64,000 nt of DNA from Collinsella sp. (GTDB taxonomy: Bacteria > Actinomycetota > Coriobacteriia > Coriobacteriales > Coriobacteriaceae). Positions 7,795 to 58,662 of the stretch are shown here, piece by piece. The translations under genes and the position numbers were made by a program. The notes under the pieces are model-generated. The model was not told the DNA's origin. It did not search any database and worked only from the letters and a program-made list of their open reading frames with translations. The DNA lies in contig DXZW01000018.1 of assembly GCA_019419455.1 (NCBI GenBank), positions 17,676-81,675 on the forward strand, written 5' to 3'. Each line of letters begins with the position of its first letter. Position 1 is the first letter of the stretch.

Positions 7795-8058
7795 CAGAAG
7801 CAGCTCCCTGTGCGCAATCTACACAGAGATATTCCTCTTTTGGCGATAGTGCCCACGCTACGGCCCTGGACGTAGATCCGATTTGCGTGCAGCAGAGGGG
7901 ATTATGCCAGCTCGAACCAAGGTTTTCAAGCTCGTCCCACAAATATATATAGGTTTATGGAGTGTTGGGCTCCGTTTACGGATTGCTCTGTATTTATGCT
8001 CGCAATTAAGCTCGAGGTTGGCTACACTATCCAGTGACCATTAAAGGGGTACGAGATA

Positions 8059-8104
8059 CCCACATGGAATTACATTGCTGCCAAAGAGCAGCCCTTCCTG
8101 TGGG
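8059..8104 (+). promoter_or_regulatory. Candidate PyrR-binding leader hairpin
   Basis: The stem CCCACA(T)GGAA/TTCCTGTGGG encloses GCTG-CCAAAGAG-CAGC. The apical loop resembles the PyrR box core (CCAGAGAG). A T7 run follows at 8137-8143. Confidence 0.3.
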
Positions 8105-8170
8105 TGTCTGGTCCGCTTTGAGCGGTCGGGCATCTATTTTTTTGACTGTGTCAGCAGTCAAGACATGTGA

Positions 8171-9699
<1,529 letters not shown>

Positions 9700-9716
<17 letters not shown>

Positions 9717-10989
9717 GAATGCCCACGTCGTCGACCCGTCCGTCGAGCTTGACGGTGTCGTTGACGTCCTGATTGACGGCGACAAGATCGCCGAGGTCGG
9801 CGAGAATCTCGCCGTCGAGGGAGCCGAGGTCCGCGACTTTTCCGGCAAGTACCTCGTCCCCGGCCTGGTGGATATGCACGTTCACCTTCGCGAGCCCGGC
9901 TACGAGGTCAAAGAGGACATCGAGAGCGGCACCCGCGCAGCTGCAAAGGGCGGCTTTACCGGCGTGTGCTCCATGCCCAACACCGATCCCGTTACCGATA
10001 ACGGTACCGTCGTGGAGTTCGTCAAGTCCCGTGCTGCCGAGGTCGGTCACTGCCGCGTCTATCCGTCGGGCGCTATGACCCGCGGTCTTAAGGGCGAGGC
10101 CATGTCCGAGATGGGCGATATGGTCGCCCACGGCGCCGTCGCCTTCACCGACGATGGTCGCGGCGTGCAGGGCGCGGGCATGCTCCGTCGCTGCATGGAC
10201 TACGGCAAGATGTTCGGCAAGGTCTTTATGAGCCACTGCCAGGACGAGGATCTGGTCGGCCATGGCCAGATCAACGAGGGCAAGGTCTCGACCCGTCTGG
10301 CCCTCGAGGGCTGGCCGGCCGCCGGCGAGGAGCTTCAGATCGCCCGCGACATCGAGATCGCCAAGCTGACCGGTGCCAAGCTGCACATCCAGCACATCTC
10401 CACCGCTCACGGTCTCGAGCTCGTGCGTGCCGGTAAGGCCGCCGGTGTCCAGGTGACCTGCGAGGCCACCCCGCACCACATGTTCCTGACCGAGAACGAC
10501 CTGGACGAGACCTACAACACCTCGCTCAAGGTCAATCCGCCGCTGCGCACCGACGAGGACGCCGAGGCCATTCGTCAGGGTGTCATCGACGGTACCGTCG
10601 ACGCTATCGTCACCGATCACGCTCCCCACACCCCGTGGGAGAAGGCCCGCGAGTTCGAGCTTGCGCCCTTTGGCATGATCGGCCTCGAGACCTCCCTGTC
10701 GCTCGTACTCACCGAGCTGGTCAACACGGGCAAGATGAGCGTGGGCCGCATGGTCGAGCTCATGGCCATCAAGCCGCGTGAGATCCTGGGCCTCGACCAG
10801 GTTCAGGTCAAGGCGGGCTCCGTTGCCGACCTGACCGTGTTCGACCCCTCTGCCACCTGGACGGTCGGCGAGGACGGTTATGAGTCGCGCGCCGAGAACT
10901 CCGGTTTTGCCGGCCGCACGCTTACCGGTCGCGCTACCGATGTGTTTGTCGGCGGTAAGCAGACGCTCGCCGACGGCTGCATCTGCTAG
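9700..10989 (+). CDS. pyrC: Dihydroorotase
   Basis: It has the metal-binding motif DMHVHLREPG and ..VTDHAPH. GGAGG precedes the ATG at 9700. Confidence 0.9.
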
Positions 10990-11009
10990 CATAGCCTTAT
11001 CGCTTTTGT

Positions 11010-11048
11010 GCGCGGTGCCCTTGCGGTGCCGCGCTTTCTGTTCGTTTT
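11010..11048 (+). terminator. Internal terminator/attenuator-like hairpin between pyrC and pyrK
   Basis: The stem GCGCGG..CCGCGC is followed by the T-rich run TTTCTGTTCGTTTT. This is weak. Confidence 0.4.
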
Positions 11049-11081
11049 GACCATGCAACCGCATGGGGGATTGGAGCGTCT

Positions 11082-11873
11082 ATGCCCACACCTTCCACTG
11101 CACGCATGCACGACTTCGAGGTCGTCTCGAACCGGGAGATCGCCGATGGCATCTTCTCGCTCGTCATCTCGGCCCCCAAGCTTGCAAGTGCGCTCAAGCC
11201 CGGCCAGTTTGTGAACATTGCCGTGCCCGGCGATGCGTCCTCGCTGCTTCGCGTGCCCTTGAGCTTCTATCGCGCCGACGCCCAGGCCGGCACCGTCGAG
11301 CTGTGGTACGCCGTCGTGGGTGACGATACTCGTCGTCTGTCGCAGATGGCCCCCGGTTCCACCTCTAACCTGCTGGGCCCCGGTGGCCGTGGCTGGATGG
11401 TACCCGAGGGCACCAGGAAGGCCCTGCTCGTCGCCGGTGGCATCGGCGTTCCGCCTGTGCTGTGCCTTGCCGGCATGCTTGCCGAGCAGAGTGTTGATGT
11501 GGACGTGTGCCTGGGCTTTGGCACCGCTTCCAAGGCCGTGGGCATCGACGAGTTCCGCGCGCTGGGCGCCACGGTTAACGTGTGCACCGACGATGGCACG
11601 CTGGGCACGCACGGTTTTTGCACCGACCCGGCAGCCGAGCTGCTCGGCGAGGGCGGCTACGACTACGTCGCCAGCTGCGGTCCCGCCGTCATGATGAAGA
11701 AAGTCGCCGCCGCTGCCGCCGAGGCCGGTGCGTACTGCGAGGTGTCGCTCGAGCGCATGATGAGCTGTGGCTTTGGCGCCTGCAACACCTGCAATGTCGA
11801 GACGGTCGACGGTATGAAGGGTGCTTGCATGTGCGGCCCCGTGTTCGATGCTTCCAAGGTGGTGGTCTTCTAG
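11082..11873 (+). CDS. pyrK: Dihydroorotate dehydrogenase electron-transfer subunit
   Basis: 263 aa with an FAD/NAD-binding fold. The C-terminal 2Fe-2S Cys cluster is CGFGACNTC..C.C. Confidence 0.85.
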   Translation: MPTPSTARMHDFEVVSNREIADGIFSLVISAPKLASALKPGQFVNIAVPGDASSLLRVPLSFYRADAQAGTVELWYAVVGDDTRRLSQMAPGSTSNLLGPGGRGWMVPEGTRKALLVAGGIGVPPVLCLAGMLAEQSVDVDVCLGFGTASKAVGIDEFRALGATVNVCTDDGTLGTHGFCTDPAAELLGEGGYDYVASCGPAVMMKKVAAAAAEAGAYCEVSLERMMSCGFGACNTCNVETVDGMKGACMCGPVFDASKVVVF

Positions 11874-11887
11874 TGGGTACCGTGAAC

Positions 11888-12796
11888 ATGGCCGTCGATT
11901 TCGGCGGCGTCAAGATGCAAAACCCCATCAACACCGCAGCCGGTACCTTTGGCTACGGCTGGCAGTTCCAGAACTTCTTTGATGTTTCCCAACTGGGCGC
12001 CATCACCACCAAGGGTTGCGCAGCCGAGCCCTGGCCCGGTAACCCCGCGCCCCGCATGGCCGAGATCCCCGGCGGTATGATCAACTCCGTGGGCCTTCAG
12101 AACCCCGGCGTGGCCGCCTTTGCTCGCGAGTCCGGTCCGTGGCTCGAACAGCTGTCCAAGGACGGCTGCCAGGTCATCTGTCAGGTTGCCGGCCACTCCG
12201 TTGACGAGTTTGTGCGCGCGCTCGAGATGTATGTCGAGCTATGCCCCTGGGCTGCCGGCTACGAGATCAACGTGAGCTGCCCCAACATCGCCGCCGGCGG
12301 TGCCGCCATGGGCTCTACGCCCGAGGGCGCCTCTTCCGTTATGGCTGCCTGCCGCAAGGTGACCGATAAGCCGCTGTTCGTGAAGATGGCGCCGGTCAAC
12401 GTCGCCGAGATCGCCAAGGCCCTCGAAGCCGCCGGCGCCGACGGCCTTTCGGTCATTAACTCCATCCAGGGCATGGCCATCGACGTCCATACCCGCAAGT
12501 CCCGCGTGGCAAAGCCCAAGGGCGGCCTTTCGGGCCCGCTGTGCCACCACATCGCCGTGCGCATGGTCTGGGAGGTCGCCCAGGCCGTCGATATCCCCAT
12601 CAACGGTGTCGGCGGTGTCATGACCGGCGAGGATGCGGCCGAGTTTATCCTGGCCGGTGCCACCTGCGTGTCGGTTGGCATGGCCAACTTCGTCGATCCG
12701 TGCGCTTCGCTCAAGATCGCGCACGAGCTCGAGGCCTGGGCGGAGTCCCAGGGCGTAAAGGACATCAACGAGCTGGTAGGTGCTTTCGAATGCTAG
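11888..12796 (+). CDS. pyrD: Dihydroorotate dehydrogenase B catalytic subunit
   Basis: The DHOD class 1B region begins at MAVDFGGVKMQNPINTAAGTFGYG. The upstream part of ORF 11582.. overlaps pyrK and was rejected. An alternative GTG start at 11873 is possible. Confidence 0.9.
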   Translation: MAVDFGGVKMQNPINTAAGTFGYGWQFQNFFDVSQLGAITTKGCAAEPWPGNPAPRMAEIPGGMINSVGLQNPGVAAFARESGPWLEQLSKDGCQVICQVAGHSVDEFVRALEMYVELCPWAAGYEINVSCPNIAAGGAAMGSTPEGASSVMAACRKVTDKPLFVKMAPVNVAEIAKALEAAGADGLSVINSIQGMAIDVHTRKSRVAKPKGGLSGPLCHHIAVRMVWEVAQAVDIPINGVGGVMTGEDAAEFILAGATCVSVGMANFVDPCASLKIAHELEAWAESQGVKDINELVGAFEC

Positions 12797-13506
12797 AGAC
12801 CGATGCCCGCGACCGTGTGATCGTCGCCCTCGACTGCGACCGTGAGCGCGCACTCGAGCTCGCCCACGAGCTTTCGGGCCATGCCGCCTGGCTTAAGGTT
12901 GGTATGACGCTCTATTACGCTGAGGGCCCCGAGATCGTCAAGACCTTTAAGGACCTGGGCTTTAAGGTCTTCCTTGACCTTAAGTTCCATGATATTCCGC
13001 ATCAGGTTCGCGGTGCCGCCCGTTCGGCCTCGCTTGCCGGTGCCGACCTGCTCTCGGTTCACGGCTTGGGTTCGGGCGCCATGCTCGCTGCCTGCCGCGA
13101 GGGTGCCGAGGAGGCGCGCGAGGACCGCGCCAAGCTCGTCGCCATCACCGTGCTCACGAGCATGAATCAGGATGCCTTGAGCGAGATCGGCGTCGAGTCG
13201 CCCGTGGCCGAGGAGGCCGCCCGCCTGGCAAAGCTCGCTCAGGCCAACGGCATCGATGGCATTGTGTGCTCGCCGATGGAGGCTCACGACATGCGTGAGC
13301 TGCTGGGCCCTGATGCCCTGATCGTGACTCCGGGTGTGCGTCCGGTGGGTGCCGCCCTTGGTGATCAGTCCCGCGTGGCGACGCCTTCCCAGGCTATCGA
13401 GCGTGGCGCAAGCCACATTGTGGTGGGCCGTCCCATCACCGGTGCCGACGATCCGGTTGCCGCCTTTGACGCCATCGTCGCTGAGCTGGTCGAAAACGTC
13501 GCGTAA
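12790..13506 (+). CDS. pyrF: Orotidine 5'-phosphate decarboxylase
   Basis: MLETDARDRVIVALDC..FLDLKFHDIP is the OMPdecase signature. The ATG overlaps the pyrD stop. Confidence 0.9.
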   Translation: MLETDARDRVIVALDCDRERALELAHELSGHAAWLKVGMTLYYAEGPEIVKTFKDLGFKVFLDLKFHDIPHQVRGAARSASLAGADLLSVHGLGSGAMLAACREGAEEAREDRAKLVAITVLTSMNQDALSEIGVESPVAEEAARLAKLAQANGIDGIVCSPMEAHDMRELLGPDALIVTPGVRPVGAALGDQSRVATPSQAIERGASHIVVGRPITGADDPVAAFDAIVAELVENVA

Positions 13507-32980: not shown

Positions 32981-35227
32981 ATGACACTCGTATCCAAGAC
33001 CTTTGAGCTGTACGGCAAGACCTACACCTTCGAGTCGGGCGAGCTTGCCAAGCAGGCCACCGGCGCCTGTCTTGTCAAGCAGGGCGACACCACGATGCTC
33101 GACACCGTGGTCGTCTCCAAGGAGCGCAAGAACTACGACTTCTTCCCGCTGACCGTCGACTTCAACGAGAAGATGTACGCCGCAGGCCGCATCCCGGGTG
33201 GCTACCTCAAGCGTGAGGGCCGTCCCAGCGAGAAGGCCACGCTCACGGCCCGCATGATCGACCGTCCGATTCGCCCGAGCTTCCCGGACGGCTTCCGTAA
33301 CGAGGTGCACATCGTCGCCACCTCGCTCGTCGCCGACCAGGTCAACCCCTTCGATGTCATCAACGTCATGGGTGCATCCCTGGCCATGACGCTCGGCGGC
33401 GTGCCCTTCGAGGGCCCGCTTGCCTGCGTGCGCATCGGCCGCAACGTGGAGACCGGCGAGTTTATCGTCAACCCCACCTATGAGGAGCGCGAGAACTCCG
33501 ATCTGGACCTGGAGCTGGGCGGCTCTGCCGACTTCATCTCGATGGTCGAGGCCGGCGCCGAGGAGATCTCCGAGGACGACATGCTCGCCGCTATGAAGTT
33601 TGGCCAGGAGGCCCTCGCTGCCTTCTGCCAGGCCCAAGACGAGTTCGTCGCCGAGTGGGAGCAGGTCAACGGCGCTATCGTCAAGAAGGAGTACCCGCTC
33701 GACCAGCCTGTCGAGGAGGTCCAGGAGCGCATCTTCGCCCACTACGACGAGATGGCCGCTGCCCTGCGCGACGCCGACAAGCTTTCCCGCATCGGTAAGG
33801 TCGAGGCTCTGAAGGAGTCCATCCGCGCCGAGTTCACCGACGAGGAGCAGGCCGCCTGGGAGCGCGAGATCCCCGTGGCGCTCAAGAAGCTCGAGAAGAA
33901 GGCCATGCGCACCATGGTCGTCGAGACCGGCGAGCGCGTCGACGGCCGTGCCGCCGATGAGATTCGCCCCATCATGGTGAAGGATAACTACCTGCCGCTC
34001 GTTCACGGCTCCGGTCTGTTCCAGCGTGGCCAGACCCAGGTGCTTTCCGTCCTGTCGCTCGGTATGCTCAACGAGGGTCAGCGTCTGGATACCATCGAGC
34101 CCACCGAGGGCAAGCGCTATATGCACCACTACAACTTCCCGCCGTTCTGCACCGGCGAGACTGGCCGCATGGGCAGCCCCAAGCGCCGCGAGATCGGCCA
34201 CGGCAACCTGGCCGAGCGCGCCCTGCTCCCGGTGCTCCCCGACGAGAACGAGTTCCCCTACGCTATTCGCGTGGTCTCCGAGGTCATGGAGTCCAACGGC
34301 TCCTCTTCGATGGCTTCGACCTGCGGCTCCACGCTCGCCCTTATGGACGGCGGCGTGCCTATTAAGCGCCCGGTCTCCGGTATCGCCATGGGCCTGATCC
34401 AGGAGGAGGGCAAGACCGTGGTCCTGTCCGATATCCAGGGTCTCGAGGACTTCCTGGGCGACATGGACTTTAAGGTCACCGGCACCACCGAGGGCATCAC
34501 CGCCCTGCAGATGGACAACAAGGCCACCGGTCTTACCTTCGACATCTTGGCCCGCGCCCTGCAGCAGGCCAAGGAGGGTCGCGCCTTCATCCTGCAGAAG
34601 ATGCTCGATGTGATCCCCGAGCCGCGCCACACCACGCGCAGCACCGCTCCGCGCATCGTCTCCATCCAGGTTCCGACCGACAAGATCCGCGACGTTATCG
34701 GTTCTGGTGGTAAGGTCATCCGCGGCATCCAGGACGAGACCGGTGCCTCGGTCGACATCCAGGAGGACGGCACCGTCTTTGTCGGCGGCACCGGCGAGTC
34801 CGTCGACCAGGCTGTCGAGCGCATCAAGCTCATCATCAAGGTTCCCGAGCCGGGCGAGGAGTACACCGGTCGCGTGGTCTCCATCCAGCCCTTCGGTGCC
34901 TTCGTGAACCTTCTGCCCGGTAAGGACGGCCTGCTCCACATCTCCCGCGTCGCCAAGGGCCGCGTGGAGAAGGTCGAGGACGTCCTCAACGTGGGCGACG
35001 AGGTCAAGGTCGTCGTCATCGAGGTCGACGACCGTGGCAAGATCTCGCTCGATCGTCTTGACAAGCCTGAGGCCCCGGCTCGCGCCGAGGGTGCCTCCGA
35101 GGGCGACGGCGAGCACTTCCAGCGTCGTGAGCGTCCGCGTCGCGAGCGCTCCGAGCGCAGCGACCGTCCGCGCCGTCCCGGCGACAACGGAGGCCGCAAG
35201 CCCCGCCGCCACCACGACGCCGAGTAA
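32981..35227 (+). CDS. pnp: Polyribonucleotide nucleotidyltransferase (PNPase)
   Basis: 748 aa with two RNase PH domains, KH and S1 domains, and a basic C-terminal tail. Confidence 0.95.
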   Translation: MTLVSKTFELYGKTYTFESGELAKQATGACLVKQGDTTMLDTVVVSKERKNYDFFPLTVDFNEKMYAAGRIPGGYLKREGRPSEKATLTARMIDRPIRPSFPDGFRNEVHIVATSLVADQVNPFDVINVMGASLAMTLGGVPFEGPLACVRIGRNVETGEFIVNPTYEERENSDLDLELGGSADFISMVEAGAEEISEDDMLAAMKFGQEALAAFCQAQDEFVAEWEQVNGAIVKKEYPLDQPVEEVQERIFAHYDEMAAALRDADKLSRIGKVEALKESIRAEFTDEEQAAWEREIPVALKKLEKKAMRTMVVETGERVDGRAADEIRPIMVKDNYLPLVHGSGLFQRGQTQVLSVLSLGMLNEGQRLDTIEPTEGKRYMHHYNFPPFCTGETGRMGSPKRREIGHGNLAERALLPVLPDENEFPYAIRVVSEVMESNGSSSMASTCGSTLALMDGGVPIKRPVSGIAMGLIQEEGKTVVLSDIQGLEDFLGDMDFKVTGTTEGITALQMDNKATGLTFDILARALQQAKEGRAFILQKMLDVIPEPRHTTRSTAPRIVSIQVPTDKIRDVIGSGGKVIRGIQDETGASVDIQEDGTVFVGGTGESVDQAVERIKLIIKVPEPGEEYTGRVVSIQPFGAFVNLLPGKDGLLHISRVAKGRVEKVEDVLNVGDEVKVVVIEVDDRGKISLDRLDKPEAPARAEGASEGDGEHFQRRERPRRERSERSDRPRRPGDNGGRKPRRHHDAE

Positions 35228-35250: not shown

Positions 35251-35282
35251 AAGGGCGACTCCGGACAGGGGTCGCCCTTTTG
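35251..35282 (+). terminator. Rho-independent terminator of pnp
   Basis: AAGGGCGAC-(11 nt)-GTCGCCCTT followed by TTT. Its T-run overlaps the first bases of repeat A1. Confidence 0.7.
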
Positions 35283-35420
35283 CTTGCGCCCGGGAGGGCC
35301 GCATATGAAGTTTCCTGCTCTACAGTCCTGCGCAAGACGGAAAGCACATTAAGTGCTTTCCTTTGCGTGCGGAACTCGCGATAAACTTCATATGCGGCCC
35401 TCCCGGGCGCAAGCAAAAGG
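35276..35420. repeat. Nested-palindrome element A1 (145 nt)
   Basis: A perfect 38-bp outer stem (35276-35313 / 35383-35420) encloses a 69-nt core with the apical hairpin GGAAAGCAC-attaa-GTGCTTTCC. Confidence 0.9.
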
Positions 35421-35546
35421 ACTGGTTAGTGCCGCTCGCTATTTAGTTAGACAGTCTATTCAGTAGTCAGATTTCAGATCTGTAGATAGCCGCAGCAGCA
35501 TCTTCCCAGATAAAATCGACCAAAATAAACCTGTCCCTTTTTGGCA

Positions 35547-35679
35547 GGTTTCCCGTGGGGCGGGCACTGATGAAGTTTATCGCGAGTTCCGCACGAACAG
35601 GAGGCCACTTAATGTGGCCTCCGTCGTGAGCAGGACTGTAGAGCAGGAAACTTCATCAGTGCCCGCCCCACGGGAAACC
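35547..35679. repeat. Nested-palindrome element A2 (133 nt), inverted relative to A1
   Basis: A perfect 32-bp outer stem (35547-35578 / 35648-35679) encloses a 69-nt core that is the reverse complement of the A1 core (59/69). The apical hairpin is GGAGGCCAC-ttaat-GTGGCCTCC. Confidence 0.9.
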
Positions 35680-35867
35680 GGCGGGATAGACCGGTTTGGA
35701 TGGGGCTTTGATGCATGGGTGGTCTGTTGGTGGGCAAATGGGTATCATACTGTGGTTATTGCATCGACTCTGCGATGCATGTTTGTACGTTCCCGGCGGT
35801 CGGTTTGCCAGAAGCGCCCCGTCGGTTGTTCCAGACCCGTTTCGAAGAAAGGAAACCACACTAACCT

Positions 35868-37538
35868 ATGGCAGCTAAAAAATCATCTCCCTTGAAGATC
35901 ATCCCGCTTGGCGGCCTTGACGGCATCGGCAAGAACATGACGGTCTTCGAGTGCGGCGACGACATGGTGCTCGTCGACGCTGGCCTCATGTTCCCGGATG
36001 ACTCCCAGCCCGGTATCGACCTGGTGCTTCCCGACTACACCTATGTTCTTGAGAACGAGGAGAAGCTCCGCGGCATCATCGTCACCCACGGCCACGAGGA
36101 CCACACCGGTTCGCTTCCGTATCTGCTGCAGGACCTCAACAATAAGGTGCCCATCTTCTCGAGCAAGCTGACGCTCGGCTTTATCGAGGGCAAGCTCTCC
36201 GAGTTCCGCATCCGCGCACCCAAGTTCCGTGAGGTCAAGGGCGGCAGCCATGTCAACCTCGGCGGCATCTCGCTCGACTTCTTCTCGATGACGCACTCCA
36301 TTCCCGGCGCTCTGGGTGTGTTCATTCGCACCAACCAGGGCACCGTTATGCACACCGGCGACTTTAAGCTCGACCAGACGCCCATCGACGGCGTCACGCC
36401 CGACTATGCCGCTATCAGCCGTTTTGCCAAGCAGGGCATCGACCTGCTGCTTTCCGACTCCACCAATGCCACGGTTCCCGGCTTTACCAAGTCCGAGGCC
36501 GAGGTTGGTCCCAACCTGTTGCACGCCATCAAGAACGCCCCGGGTCGCGTGTTCGTCGCGTCGTTCTCGAGCCACATCCATCGTCTGCAGCAGATCTGCG
36601 ATGCCGCCCGCAAGTGCGGCCGTAAGGTCGTTGTGACCGGTCGCTCCATGCTCACGAACACCCGCGTGGCGCGTGAGCTGGGCTACCTCAACATCGATGA
36701 CGCCGATATCATCGATGCCTTCGATATCGATAACCTGCCCGACGATAAGATTGTCGTCATGTGCACCGGTTCGCAGGGCGAGCCGCTGTCGGCCCTGTCC
36801 CGCATGGCCAATGGCGAGCACAAGACGCTCTCCATCCACGAGGGCGATACCGTTATCCTTTCGGCAACTCCCGTTCCTGGCAACGAGAAGGCCGTCCAGC
36901 AGGTCGTCAACAGCCTGGCCAAGCTCGGCTGCGACGTGTGGGATAAGAACCGCGCTCTCGTCCACGTCTCGGGTCACGGTAGCCAGGAGGAGCTCAAGCT
37001 CCTGATGGCCATGGCCAAGCCCACGTACTTTATGCCGGTTCACGGTGAGGCCGTGCATCTGCGCGCCCATGCGCAGCTGGCCCGCAAGATGGGCATCAAG
37101 GACGATCATATCTTTATCCTCGATAACGGCGACACGCTCGAGATGCGCGGTGGTATCGTCAAGCGCGGTACGCCCGTCGAGTCCGGTGTCGTTTACGTCG
37201 ACGGCCTGCGTATCGGCGATACCGACCCCATCGTCCTGCGCGATCGCCAGAAGCTCGCCAACGACGGTATGGTCACGGCCGTTGCCATCGTCTCCCTCAA
37301 ACACAAGAAGATCGAGGCCATCGAGTTCTCGGGCCGCGGCGTCTCGTTTGCCATCGACGACCAGTTCTCCGAGGATGCCTCCGCGTCCATTATGAAGACG
37401 ATCGAGAAGGGTAAGTTTAGCTTTACCAGCAGCGGTTCCGATGCCATTCGCAAGGCCGTGCGCGATTCGCTCTCTAACTTTATCTGGAGCCGTACGCGCA
37501 CCCGTCCGATGATCATCCCGGTCGTCATGGAGGTTTAG
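35868..37538 (+). CDS. rnj: Ribonuclease J
   Basis: Beta-lactamase/beta-CASP fold with HGHEDHTG. 556 aa. Confidence 0.9.
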   Translation: MAAKKSSPLKIIPLGGLDGIGKNMTVFECGDDMVLVDAGLMFPDDSQPGIDLVLPDYTYVLENEEKLRGIIVTHGHEDHTGSLPYLLQDLNNKVPIFSSKLTLGFIEGKLSEFRIRAPKFREVKGGSHVNLGGISLDFFSMTHSIPGALGVFIRTNQGTVMHTGDFKLDQTPIDGVTPDYAAISRFAKQGIDLLLSDSTNATVPGFTKSEAEVGPNLLHAIKNAPGRVFVASFSSHIHRLQQICDAARKCGRKVVVTGRSMLTNTRVARELGYLNIDDADIIDAFDIDNLPDDKIVVMCTGSQGEPLSALSRMANGEHKTLSIHEGDTVILSATPVPGNEKAVQQVVNSLAKLGCDVWDKNRALVHVSGHGSQEELKLLMAMAKPTYFMPVHGEAVHLRAHAQLARKMGIKDDHIFILDNGDTLEMRGGIVKRGTPVESGVVYVDGLRIGDTDPIVLRDRQKLANDGMVTAVAIVSLKHKKIEAIEFSGRGVSFAIDDQFSEDASASIMKTIEKGKFSFTSSGSDAIRKAVRDSLSNFIWSRTRTRPMIIPVVMEV

Positions 37539-56852: not shown

Positions 56853-56867
56853 GGCGCTCGTATCCCT

Positions 56868-56970
56868 CCCGCCCGGGGCTTACCTATATCATTCCATGCT
56901 CAAACATTCTCGCGTCGCTTCGCTCGCTGCGAAACTGCGCGTGGAACGATATAGGTAAGCCCCGGGCGGG
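56868..56970. repeat. Nested-palindrome element B1 (103 nt)
   Basis: A perfect 23-bp outer stem (56868-56890 / 56948-56970) encloses a 57-nt core. Confidence 0.9.
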
Positions 56971-57003
56971 CGGCTACTCGCTTGAAACAGTATTTACTTT
57001 TCT

Positions 57004-57052
57004 AGTAAGTCGATGCGATAAAGGGACGCCTCCTTTGTCGCATCGACTTACT
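57004..57052 (+). other. 21-bp hairpin with T-rich tail in the AT-rich centre between B1 and B2
   Basis: AGTAAGTCGATGCGATAAAGG-gacgcct-CCTTTGTCGCATCGACTTACT followed by GTATTTATATTTTT. Confidence 0.7.
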
Positions 57053-57128: not shown

Positions 57129-57232
57129 GCTGCTCGGCGGGAGCCGCCCATATATCGTTCCACGCGCAGTTTCGCAGCGCAGCGAGAATGTTTGAGCATG
57201 GAATGATATATGGGCGGCTCCCGCCGAGCAGC
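57129..57232. repeat. Nested-palindrome element B2 (104 nt), inverted relative to B1
   Basis: A perfect 28-bp outer stem (57129-57156 / 57205-57232) encloses a 48-nt core. The core equals the reverse complement of the B1 core over 23+23 nt, with a 9-nt apical indel. Confidence 0.9.
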
Positions 57233-57242
57233 AGACTATCGC

Positions 57243-58544
57243 CTAGCGGATATGCGCGGGTTTTCCGCCCCAGTAGAAGCGGCAGAAGGCTCTTTTGCGC
57301 TTTTGGGGTTTGCCTACGAGCTCCATGGTTGCGATGGCTATGTCTTCGGCTCCATGGGGGCGGCGTAGTACTTCGCCGTTGATGAGTAGGGCTTTGAGTG
57401 ATTCGGGATGGTCGTGCAAGTGACGTAGGGTAACGATGAGTTCTCGTGCGGTGGTGACATGCATGCTGGCGCCCATGCCGGTGAGCATCGTGGTGTTGGC
57501 CTTTTCCTGGCCGTATGATTTGCCCAACAGGATCATCGGCAGATGCGCGCACAGGCACTCGGTAACAGTGAGTCCGCCCGATTTGAGAATTGCCAGGTCG
57601 CAGCCGTGCATGAGGGCCGCCATGTCGTCCACGTAATCCAGAACTGTGACGTTTTCGAGCTTCATGGCGTCGAAGAGCGTCTTCAGCCGGGTGGCATATT
57701 CGGTGTCTTTGCCCGGCAAGAAGATAAAGTGCATGTCCTCGAAACTGCGCAGGAAGGGGAGGGTGCGGTCCATCTCCGCGCGAAAGCGGACGTACGGTTG
57801 AGGCAAACTGGCGCCGGCCATTACCAGCACAATGGTCTTGTCGGCGGGGAGGTTGAACTTCTGAAGTTCTTCCTCGCGATTGTAATCCGTGTCAAACCCG
57901 GCGCGAATAGGGATGCCTGTAATGCGAATCTTTGCTTCGGGGACCTTGCGGGGGCGCAGCGTTTCGGCCATAAACTCGTTGGCAACACAGAATAGATCGG
58001 TGTCCTTGTGGGGCCACCAGCCCTCGACTTCGTAGTCGGTCGGTACGCAGATGACCGGATAATCGATACCCGTAATTACGCGGGCACCCACGGCAACATT
58101 GGCTGCTGTGATGTGCGTTGCGACCACGGCTATGGGCCTGCGGCTACGAATATATTCGTTGAAGGCGGGGAACATGATTCGCGACCATGCCGTGCCGCCA
58201 CCCCAGAGAAGATGTCCCGTAAGTGTATATCTCCAGGTCAGGTCGTAGATGGGGCGCGTGGCTCCCGTAAAAGATGCCGCGGTCTTATTGCCGTCGAATT
58301 TAATGCGTCCAAAATCAAGGATATCGAGCACTTCAATCTCAATATCCTCGGGGATGCCTCTGGTGCCGCGAATGAGGTCGAACGCCTGCGCAATTGCATT
58401 TGCGGCGGCCTTGTGGCCCGAGCCAACGGAGGCGTGCACGATGGTCACGAGAGGTTTTTGCTGAGCCGAGAGCGTGGTTTTCTTCGATTGGGGAGTGCTG
58501 AGCGTAAGCAGGGGAGCGTCGTCGCTCGTCTGCGTCTGATCCAT
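57243..58544 (-). CDS. GT28-family glycosyltransferase (MGDG-synthase/UgtP-like diacylglycerol glycosyltransferase)
   Basis: The N-terminus ..IVHASVGSGHKAAANAI is typical of the MGDG_synth domain, followed by a GT-B C-terminal domain. I chose the ATG at 58544 after AAGGGGAG. Confidence 0.8.
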   Translation of the reverse strand: MDQTQTSDDAPLLTLSTPQSKKTTLSAQQKPLVTIVHASVGSGHKAAANAIAQAFDLIRGTRGIPEDIEIEVLDILDFGRIKFDGNKTAASFTGATRPIYDLTWRYTLTGHLLWGGGTAWSRIMFPAFNEYIRSRRPIAVVATHITAANVAVGARVITGIDYPVICVPTDYEVEGWWPHKDTDLFCVANEFMAETLRPRKVPEAKIRITGIPIRAGFDTDYNREEELQKFNLPADKTIVLVMAGASLPQPYVRFRAEMDRTLPFLRSFEDMHFIFLPGKDTEYATRLKTLFDAMKLENVTVLDYVDDMAALMHGCDLAILKSGGLTVTECLCAHLPMILLGKSYGQEKANTTMLTGMGASMHVTTARELIVTLRHLHDHPESLKALLINGEVLRRPHGAEDIAIATMELVGKPQKRKRAFCRFYWGGKPAHIR

Positions 58545-58662
58545 CGATAACTCCCCTTCAGCTTTGTAATACGGATTTATCATTGTAGTGCATGAGTGTC
58601 ACGTTTGCTTAAATTTGGGTATGAGCGCAAAGAACGTCAATGTTTCGACGAAAGGACGCTTC

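Follow-up and report, generated by a model that had tools for sequence, protein, structure and literature searches.

Conserved-core hairpin repeats with variable, self-matching arms at intergenic sites of Collinsella, compared with REP, BIME and foldback elements

Repetitive extragenic palindromic (REP) sequences and REPINs contain a conserved, imperfect palindrome of 20–40 nt with a conserved GTAG head, which forms the arms of their hairpins, and are associated with a single-copy Y1 transposase (REP-associated tyrosine transposase, RAYT) flanked by the repeats. Bacterial interspersed mosaic elements (BIMEs) are believed to work as DNA, by binding gyrase and integration host factor. Compensatory changes have been described in the hairpin of REPINs (PMC3116915). 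Here, two long hairpins, A1 and A2, are compared with these and other systems. They lie between pnp and rnj in a 64,000-nt stretch of Collinsella sp. DNA (assembly GCA_019419455.1, contig DXZW01000018.1, positions 17,676–81,675 of the forward strand; hereafter the window). They are members of a hairpin family, family A, that occupies intergenic sites across Collinsella. The design of this family, like that of at least four sister families, inverts the usual rule for such repeats: the interior is conserved, and the arms are free to vary yet perfectly matched. No description of these Collinsella elements was found in the literature, and the family is taken to be previously undescribed. We give about even odds to the view that it is an unusual relative of REP sequences and miniature inverted-repeat transposable elements (MITEs) rather than an RNA gene.

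Hairpin A1 (35276–35420, minus strand) has 38-bp arms, which are 100% complementary, around a 69-nt core (35314–35382). In this core the blocks ATCGCGAGTTCCGCACG and GCAGGACTGTAGAGCAGG surround the apical hairpin GGAAAGCAC-TTAAT-GTGCTTTCC. Hairpin A2 (35547–35679, plus strand) has perfect 32-bp arms around a core of the same length with the apical subtype GGAGGCCAC; a longer version of its stem (35544–35682) has 35 bp at 97%. The two interiors are reverse complements of each other with identity at 59 of 69 positions, and the A1 core reads GTTCC-first on the minus strand. The 9-bp apical stems differ at three pairs, all of them compensated (GGAAAGCAC/GTGCTTTCC versus GGAGGCCAC/GTGGCCTCC), and the 18-nt and 17-nt blocks flanking the apical hairpin are identical in A1 and A2. 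The centre between the hairpins (35421–35546) is AT-rich: its 126 bp have a GC content of 42.9%, as compared with 59.5% for the window. Apart from the longer A2 stem and the GC figures, this geometry had been described in a first-pass annotation of the locus, and recomputation gave exactly the same stems, interiors, inverted arrangement, compensated apical pairs, unpaired flanks and centre. The family covariance model matches at 35289–35407 (minus, 138 bits) and 35554–35672 (plus, 140 bits), and these are the only two family-A copies in the window. Folded as single-stranded DNA, A1 and A2 give −60 to −69 kcal/mol (z = −14 to −16 against shuffles), equally on either strand.

A genome scan with a two-block core pattern, covering one genome per species, listed at least 120 family-A loci, nearly all from Collinsella, and a core profile search of the scanned loci gave at least 153 copies. 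All copies are extragenic. Grouped by their outer flanks, the loci listed represent at least about 28 orthologous intergenic sites, inherited vertically across Collinsella. Among the copies listed, pairs are arranged "−,+" without exception, with the GTTCC ends facing the centre at a distance of 200–290 bp (470–900 bp in a few cases). Many sites hold one copy only. This means that the repeated unit is a single hairpin; the hairpins of the first-pass annotation are real, and the composite pair that it took as the element is not the unit. Many contigs end inside the core, as repeats would lead one to expect. A covariance-model search of 573 kb of the 900-kb record NZ_OY725717.1 from C. aerofaciens TSDC17.2-1.1 (hereafter the isolate) found five family-A copies, namely the pnp–rnj pair and single copies upstream of rpsL, rplC and rplJ. 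This record (L123–L127 and L138–L144 in our locus numbering; 899,693 bp) is labelled "plasmid 6". It carries ribosomal-protein operons, rpoBC, recA, dnaE and similar genes and is therefore chromosomal sequence. Two contigs binned as Methanobrevibacter smithii (L018, L047) contain Collinsella pnp-terminator and hairpin sequence; they are probably contamination of metagenome-assembled genomes (MAGs).

The family-A core is 67–69 nt long, nearly invariant and asymmetric. It consists of TCGCGAGTTCCGCACG, a short apical hairpin with a TTAAT loop, and GCAGGACTGTAGAGCAG. Across 44 distinct copies, no variation was seen in the blocks TCGCGAGTTCCGCACG and CAGGACTGTAGAGCAG or in the TTAAT loop. The core always lies between site-specific arms of 25–55 bp, whose sequence differs between sites, and also between haplotypes of one site, with complementarity kept. 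Only the inner 8–12 bp (..TTAAGTTT) recur among sites, and arm sequences that were sought elsewhere, as though they were acquired spacers, were present at their own site only. Most arms follow the pattern ..CCCGG..GGGCGG..(AT-rich)AAGTTT towards the core, with a G-rich 5' arm. This loose consensus suggests descent from one ancestral long inverted repeat, followed by outward growth.

In the 44-copy alignment, 98.4% of 1540 cells are paired, and both sides have changed in 29 of the 35 pairs of the arms and the apical stem. The covariation score was 0.788, as compared with 0.185 in shuffles (0 of 500 reached the observed value) and 0.08–0.15 with slid partners. The covariation is Watson-Crick only: a single cell of the 1540 is G-U. 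Without pre-filtering, 57 mismatches were counted in 3862 stem pairs (1.5%; 15 of the G-T type and 21 of the A-C type), with no surplus of the G-T type and no strand asymmetry; in the 16 copies of the window and isolate genomes there were 4 in 554 pairs. When the alleles of each site are compared, at least two Watson-Crick pair types are present in 72 stem columns, as against 27 columns that have a mismatched allele. The additional copies and the covariation, on which the first-pass annotation had staked its proposal, were thus both found.

The arms change fast and in concert. The divergence of the isolate from the window at four-fold degenerate sites is 15% in pnp, 26% in rnj and 19% in ftsK. 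In the variable part of both arm pairs of locus A, about half differs; the stems of the isolate are nevertheless perfect, with 40 and 38 bp. A 5-nt indel is found in both arms of A2. Furthermore, the arms have taken up neighbouring sequence. The intrinsic terminator of pnp (35251–35279, plus strand; inverted repeat AAGGGCGACTCC-GGACA-GGGGTCGCCCTT, then TTTGC) overlaps the outer left arm of A1 with its 3' tail, and the right arm ends in an inverted copy of this tail (AGCAAAAGG). In all haplotypes the tail, which reads GCCCTTTTGCT where A1 begins on the pnp side, has its mirror image AGCAAAAGGGC beyond the core, towards the centre. The hairpin at rpsL shows a similar overlap, between its right arm and a terminator-like hairpin.

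Because concerted change proceeds at or above the neutral rate, without wobble intermediates, with symmetric indels and with capture of neighbouring functional sequence, the arms seem to be kept identical by a DNA-level process in which one arm is the template for the other. The same four features are not expected from selection on independent compensatory mutations in an RNA. Of the first-pass claim that selection acts on a fold over sequence, one part holds, in that the fold rather than the arm sequence is kept; its extension to an RNA fold is weakened, since Watson-Crick-only change, symmetric indels and the copied terminator tail point to DNA copying. A process of this kind is known: in Escherichia coli and yeast, template switching perfects and extends quasi-palindromes, the more so where transcription is high (PMC7202029, PMC3820800). 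It copies one arm onto the other and extends arm identity. Concerted change by Watson-Crick pairs only, indels in both arms at once and the uptake of the terminator tail would all follow from such copying. However, it is known as a mutational hotspot in laboratory reporters, and has not been described as the long-term maintenance of a repeat family.

The explanation that we favour, with a confidence of about one half, is that family A comprises Collinsella-wide, vertically inherited nested-palindrome DNA repeats, whose arms are homogenised and extended by templated copying within the element and whose core is probably read by a protein on folded DNA. The copying would likely take place by intramolecular template switching or by gene conversion within the folded strand, and would at the same time let the palindrome grow outward into the flanking DNA. 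The conserved core might be a recognition module for a protein that sees folded DNA, either as a hairpin or as a cruciform. The family could be a fixed relic or a domesticated descendant of a long-inverted-repeat (foldback) element. Its present role, if any, might be DNA punctuation beside strong promoters, such as the insulation or supercoil handling proposed for BIMEs, and not that of an RNA gene.

Like REP, REPIN and BIME sequences, the Collinsella repeats are extragenic, palindromic, multi-copy and vertically persistent, and occur as singles or as inverted doublets that fold into long hairpins. The mosaics with other short motifs between operons also have a counterpart here, in the arrangement with motif M (described below) and the other hairpin families, and the terminator–promoter position likewise recalls BIMEs. 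In REPINs, however, the arms are conserved and the interior is variable, whereas in the Collinsella family the interior is invariant and the arms are site-specific. Family A has no GTAG at the foot of the hairpin (a GTAG lies inside the core, 7 nt from the arm), its arms are 25–55 bp long and perfect, and no RAYT gene was found beside the copies read. REP sequences number hundreds per genome, as compared with tens for family A, of which five copies were found in 573 kb of the isolate. Foldback MITEs (Correia/NEMIS, ERIC/IRU, RUP, BOX) are similarly short, non-coding, intergenic and hairpin-forming and lie beside promoters or terminators, and the loose arm consensus suggests an ancestor with long terminal inverted repeats. 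In contrast to MITEs, the terminal inverted repeats of the Collinsella family are unconserved between copies beyond the inner 8–12 bp, no target-site duplication, empty site or parent insertion sequence (IS) was found, and different species share the same fixed sites. The palindrome runs into the flank, which makes it impossible to score target-site duplications in this family. Our judgement, again evenly poised, is that the family is closest to REP/BIME punctuation in function and position and to foldback MITEs in origin, with the conservation pattern inverted.

In the isolate, the single copies examined, at rpsL, rplJ and rplC, follow the upstream gene's terminator and precede the promoter predicted for the operon downstream. 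At rpsL, the terminator of the preceding gene is followed by motif M and then by the hairpin; TTGACG-17-TATCCT begins 96 nt farther on, ahead of rpsL. At rplJ, TTGACC-17-CATAAT begins 35 nt after the hairpin. Comparable −10/−35 matches lie 3' of the hairpins at other sites. The downstream genes include rnj, rpsL, rplC, rplJ, ptsH, cstA, an amino-acid-binding lipoprotein gene and an Rrf2 regulator gene, and the upstream genes include pnp, rpoC and metK. Three of the four isolate loci precede ribosomal-protein operons, for which a rough estimate of the chance probability is of the order of 10^-3. In each pair, one member is antisense to the flanking genes. This position of family A, after terminators and before predicted promoters, makes a role as leader or small RNA unlikely. 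The possibility that A1 and A2 are themselves intrinsic terminators was ruled out: no T-run was found 3' of either hairpin on either strand, and pnp has its own terminator upstream of A1.

At locus A, between the pnp open reading frame (32981–35227) and rnj (35868–37538), the 30-nt motif M (ACCAAAATAAACCTGTCCCTTTTTGGCAGG; 35519–35548, plus strand) lies directly 5' of A2. On its left side the centre starts with a degenerate inverted M, which makes the whole of locus A a quasi-palindrome of 400 bp. Motif M also precedes the rpsL hairpin. The upstream regions of rnj (window 35700–35760) and rpsL (L144, 14686–14760) share, besides motif M, the sequence GTGGTCTGTTG[AG][CT]GG around the predicted −35, which indicates that these two regulatory regions are partly homologous. 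The idea that motif M, hairpin and promoter form a portable promoter cassette was rejected, since of the four downstream genes only rnj and rpsL have motif M in common, and rplC and rplJ share the hairpin alone.

A more specific proposal, which we regard as doubtful, is that the hairpins are a cis-acting DNA device. Self-templating palindromes upstream of strong promoters (ribosomal-protein and RNase operons) would extrude as cruciforms and show the core to a dedicated Collinsella protein. They would thereby couple promoter activity or local recombination, that is, exchange of promoter-region haplotypes and small cassettes, to DNA topology.

The first-pass annotation had assigned the same architecture to a second locus of the window, locus B. 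This was confirmed, with a core unrelated to that of family A. Locus B consists of two family-B hairpins and separates dut from a convergent glycosyltransferase gene (57243–58583, minus strand). Hairpin B1 (56865–56973, plus strand) has a 57-nt family-B core (ATTCCATGCTC...GCGCGTGGAAC) and perfect 23-bp arms, and begins 13–16 nt past the dut stop codon. Hairpin B2 (57129–57232, plus strand) has a 48-nt family-B core and perfect 28-bp arms, and ends 11 nt before the glycosyltransferase stop codon. A terminator-like hairpin followed by a T-rich tail (57004–57052, plus strand) lies in the AT-rich centre between them. The B1 arms are identical in the window and the isolate; in B2, 5 of 28 arm positions have changed, each with compensation in the partner, and the stem of either genome is perfect. 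The same design, long perfect arms around a conserved interior, recurs in families B, C (GTCCTCGGAC...GTCCTGCGGAAT), D, E and F. Hairpins of families B and C are found 11–17 nt after stop codons, between convergent genes, and share with family A a G[CT]GGAA[CT] motif beside one arm. In addition to families C–F, Collinsella genomes contain a short AGTTGCGGTGAAATAG family, whose loops measure 29 nt; several of these families have a conserved interior and variable arms. Copies of these further families lie at L139 21285–21413, L142 15185–15307, L144 16829–16928, L139 32255 and 38519 and L141 36472, and at L061, L070 and L095.

The pnp–rnj spacer exists as a few discrete haplotypes, in which the A1 and A2 alleles assort independently and the centre is conserved at about 75–80%. 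In two metagenome contigs, L128 and L130 (500–1230), rnj (1671 nt) and the 3' end of pnp (540 nt) are 100% identical, and the spacer haplotypes are unrelated, with sharp borders. Divergence sets in within the pnp terminator loop and ends about 100 nt past A2. This difference represents either an old polymorphism or very local recombination. The apical-stem subtypes are distributed over sites and haplotypes in a shuffled way, and no pair examined has the same subtype in both members; the shuffling seems to indicate gene conversion between copies. Hairpins with non-matching arms (L003, L004, L066, L102, L131) all come from metagenome contigs or MAGs, where the assembly may have joined sequences through the repeat.

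Among the loci listed, every locus that covers a given flank pair carries an element there. No clean empty site was found among loci sharing flanks, nor in a sampling anchored on S15, which gave more haplotypes and one deletion allele. The comparison of orthologous pnp–rnj spacers proposed in the first-pass annotation thus yielded no presence/absence difference, apart from one imprecise deletion of 355 bp in a metagenome contig (L151, 6675–6968). It starts within the A1 core (..CCTGCTCTAC), reaches the end of A2 (GGGAAACC..) and leaves a spacer of 292 nt. A search with RNase J homologues for distant relatives gave no outgroup, the best 120 matches all being about 100% identical.

Several points weigh against the favoured explanation of DNA repeats with self-copied arms. 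The binding protein, the cruciform and the conversion event are all inferred, and none of them was observed. One arm mismatch persists in four metagenomes, which means that correction is not immediate. The invariance of the core across species may come from gene conversion between copies, instead of or besides selection. The L151 deletion may show that the locus is dispensable, or may be an assembly artefact. The promoters and terminators are consensus predictions, and promoter prediction gave none for rnj, behind A2, or for rplC. Families B and C, which lie right after stop codons, would be transcribed. In addition, of 65 single copies of family A, which are not independent of one another, 50 are in sense with the gene downstream, as are all three in the isolate; this shared orientation would also fit an RNA function or replication-coupled insertion.

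Among the other explanations, a structured RNA seems unlikely. Transcribed hairpins would act as a cis-acting leader, as a 3'-end stabiliser or as a small RNA released by RNase III, with the invariant single-stranded blocks as the binding site of a protein or a target RNA. The strongly conserved fold with its invariant unpaired blocks would suit such a role, as would the sense orientation of single copies relative to the downstream operon. Perfect stems of 30–55 bp would be substrates of RNase III, the neighbours pnp, rnj, rpsL, rplC and rplJ are genes of RNA turnover and translation, and families B and C lie in 3' untranslated regions. However, G-U pairs are almost absent and the mismatches lack strand asymmetry, and the arms, indels included, evolve in concert faster than compensatory selection would allow. 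One member of each pair is antisense to the flanking genes, and family A follows terminators and precedes predicted promoters, a position which makes a leader, or the structured non-coding RNA suggested in the first-pass annotation, unlikely. Rfam 15 gave no gathering-level match in the window, in agreement with the earlier failure to recognise a known family; at a permissive threshold only generic hairpin models of the miRNA type appeared, below the gathering score. ARAGORN, which was run since GTAGAGCAGG resembles a tRNA D-arm, called no tRNA or tmRNA.

An active non-autonomous mobile element is, if anything, less likely still. The hairpin would be the substrate of a single-strand transposase (HUH/Y1, RAYT-like) or another recombinase, and the arms would be rebuilt from the flank by fold-back priming at each insertion. 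Near-identical cores in multiple copies at unrelated sites, contigs that break at the core as they do at repeats, the biased orientation and the copied pnp terminator tail in the arms are all consistent with this, and REPIN hairpins too show compensatory changes (PMC3116915). IS200/IS605 tnpA genes also occur in the isolate, as two identical copies in 573 kb. However, the copy examined has its own unrelated small hairpins and no element of families A–C beside it, and no transposase or recombinase gene flanks the hairpin copies read, so that the HUH/Y1 substrate of the first-pass annotation finds no associated enzyme gene. The cores have no partial match to any IS end in 1.9 Mb of Collinsella sequence, and the copy number is low (five in 573 kb). 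The sites are orthologous across many species, and those covered by several genomes show no presence/absence polymorphism, the sole shorter allele being the imprecise deletion. The loose arm consensus means that the arms are not arbitrary flank. The latter two observations also count against the foldback MITE with arms regenerated on insertion that had been considered earlier.

BLAST searches against phages gave no match, and those against plasmids gave one, to a chromosome-like Collinsella record. A scan of viral contigs gave two matches. One of them, L121, is a known chromosomal site beside a prophage end: at 8000–12900 the prophage end abuts the hairpin site. About 650 bp from this site, a tRNA T-arm sequence, GGGTTCGAATCCCTCCG, is repeated, inverted (L037, 762–859; L101, 4834–4931; L105, 4340–4437), and the region is probably a phage attachment region. 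In the ribosomal-protein cluster of the isolate record, a 35-kb island with selenium-dependent xanthine dehydrogenase genes, IS21, IS3 and AbiE lies between rplE and rplX.

The content between paired hairpins varies. In one MAG (L102, 6612–7596) a hexapeptide-repeat acetyltransferase gene (product of about 190 aa) occupies the centre that measures 126 bp in the window, and in L087 and L112 tandem repeats lie between the inverted pair. A 2-kb low-GC cassette between rpoC and rpsL encodes a sigma factor of the extracytoplasmic function type and a DUF4179 anti-sigma-like protein (L120, 4347–6476; L084; L051; L144, 14593–16980). Its ends carry inverted copies of motif M and, in some genomes, also two direct 195-bp modules that contain hairpins. 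Centres and cassettes have kept a single orientation throughout the genomes examined. These arrangements fit a region prone to inverted duplication and insertion, without showing site-specific recombination.

Integron attC sites offer a parallel, in that a folded single strand is recognised, structure is conserved above sequence, the length is similar (57–141 nt) and gene cassettes adjoin. However, attC sites carry their boxes at the outer ends (RYYYAAC/GTTRRRY) and a variable centre, and form direct arrays beside an integrase gene, whereas in Collinsella the outer ends are variable, GTTCCGC is unlike GTTRRRY, the copies are single or inverted and no integrase gene lies beside them. An inverton, the invertible segment of the first-pass annotation, is not supported: the orientation of the centre is identical in all genomes and metagenome contigs examined, and no inverted allele was seen in about 25 genomes. 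Very improbable, finally, is the explanation that the hairpins are recombination sites bounding exchangeable or invertible intergenic cassettes, by dif-module-like exchange or as an invertible switch with the inverted cores as crossover sites: inverted pairs do flank variable content, the sigma/anti-sigma cassette is bounded by hairpin modules and inverted M motifs, L128 and L130 combine identical flanks with sharply bordered, unrelated spacers, and tyrosine and serine recombinase genes occur in a related genome, but the centre has one orientation throughout, the divergent block reaches beyond A2 and into the pnp terminator loop, so that it is not bordered by the cores, a single hairpin is what most sites carry, no recombinase gene lies next to the elements, and the chimeric hairpins come from MAGs and may be assembly artefacts.

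Collinsella is a prevalent genus of the human gut, and its non-coding DNA is essentially unannotated; family A and at least four sister families share the architecture described here. In practice, assemblies from short reads and metagenomes are broken or mis-joined at the repeats, and the haplotypes, being hypervariable, are markers of strains. The family also provides a natural system for measuring templated repair within palindromes over evolutionary time. In the genus itself, the repeats mark the upstream regions of core translation and RNA-decay operons.

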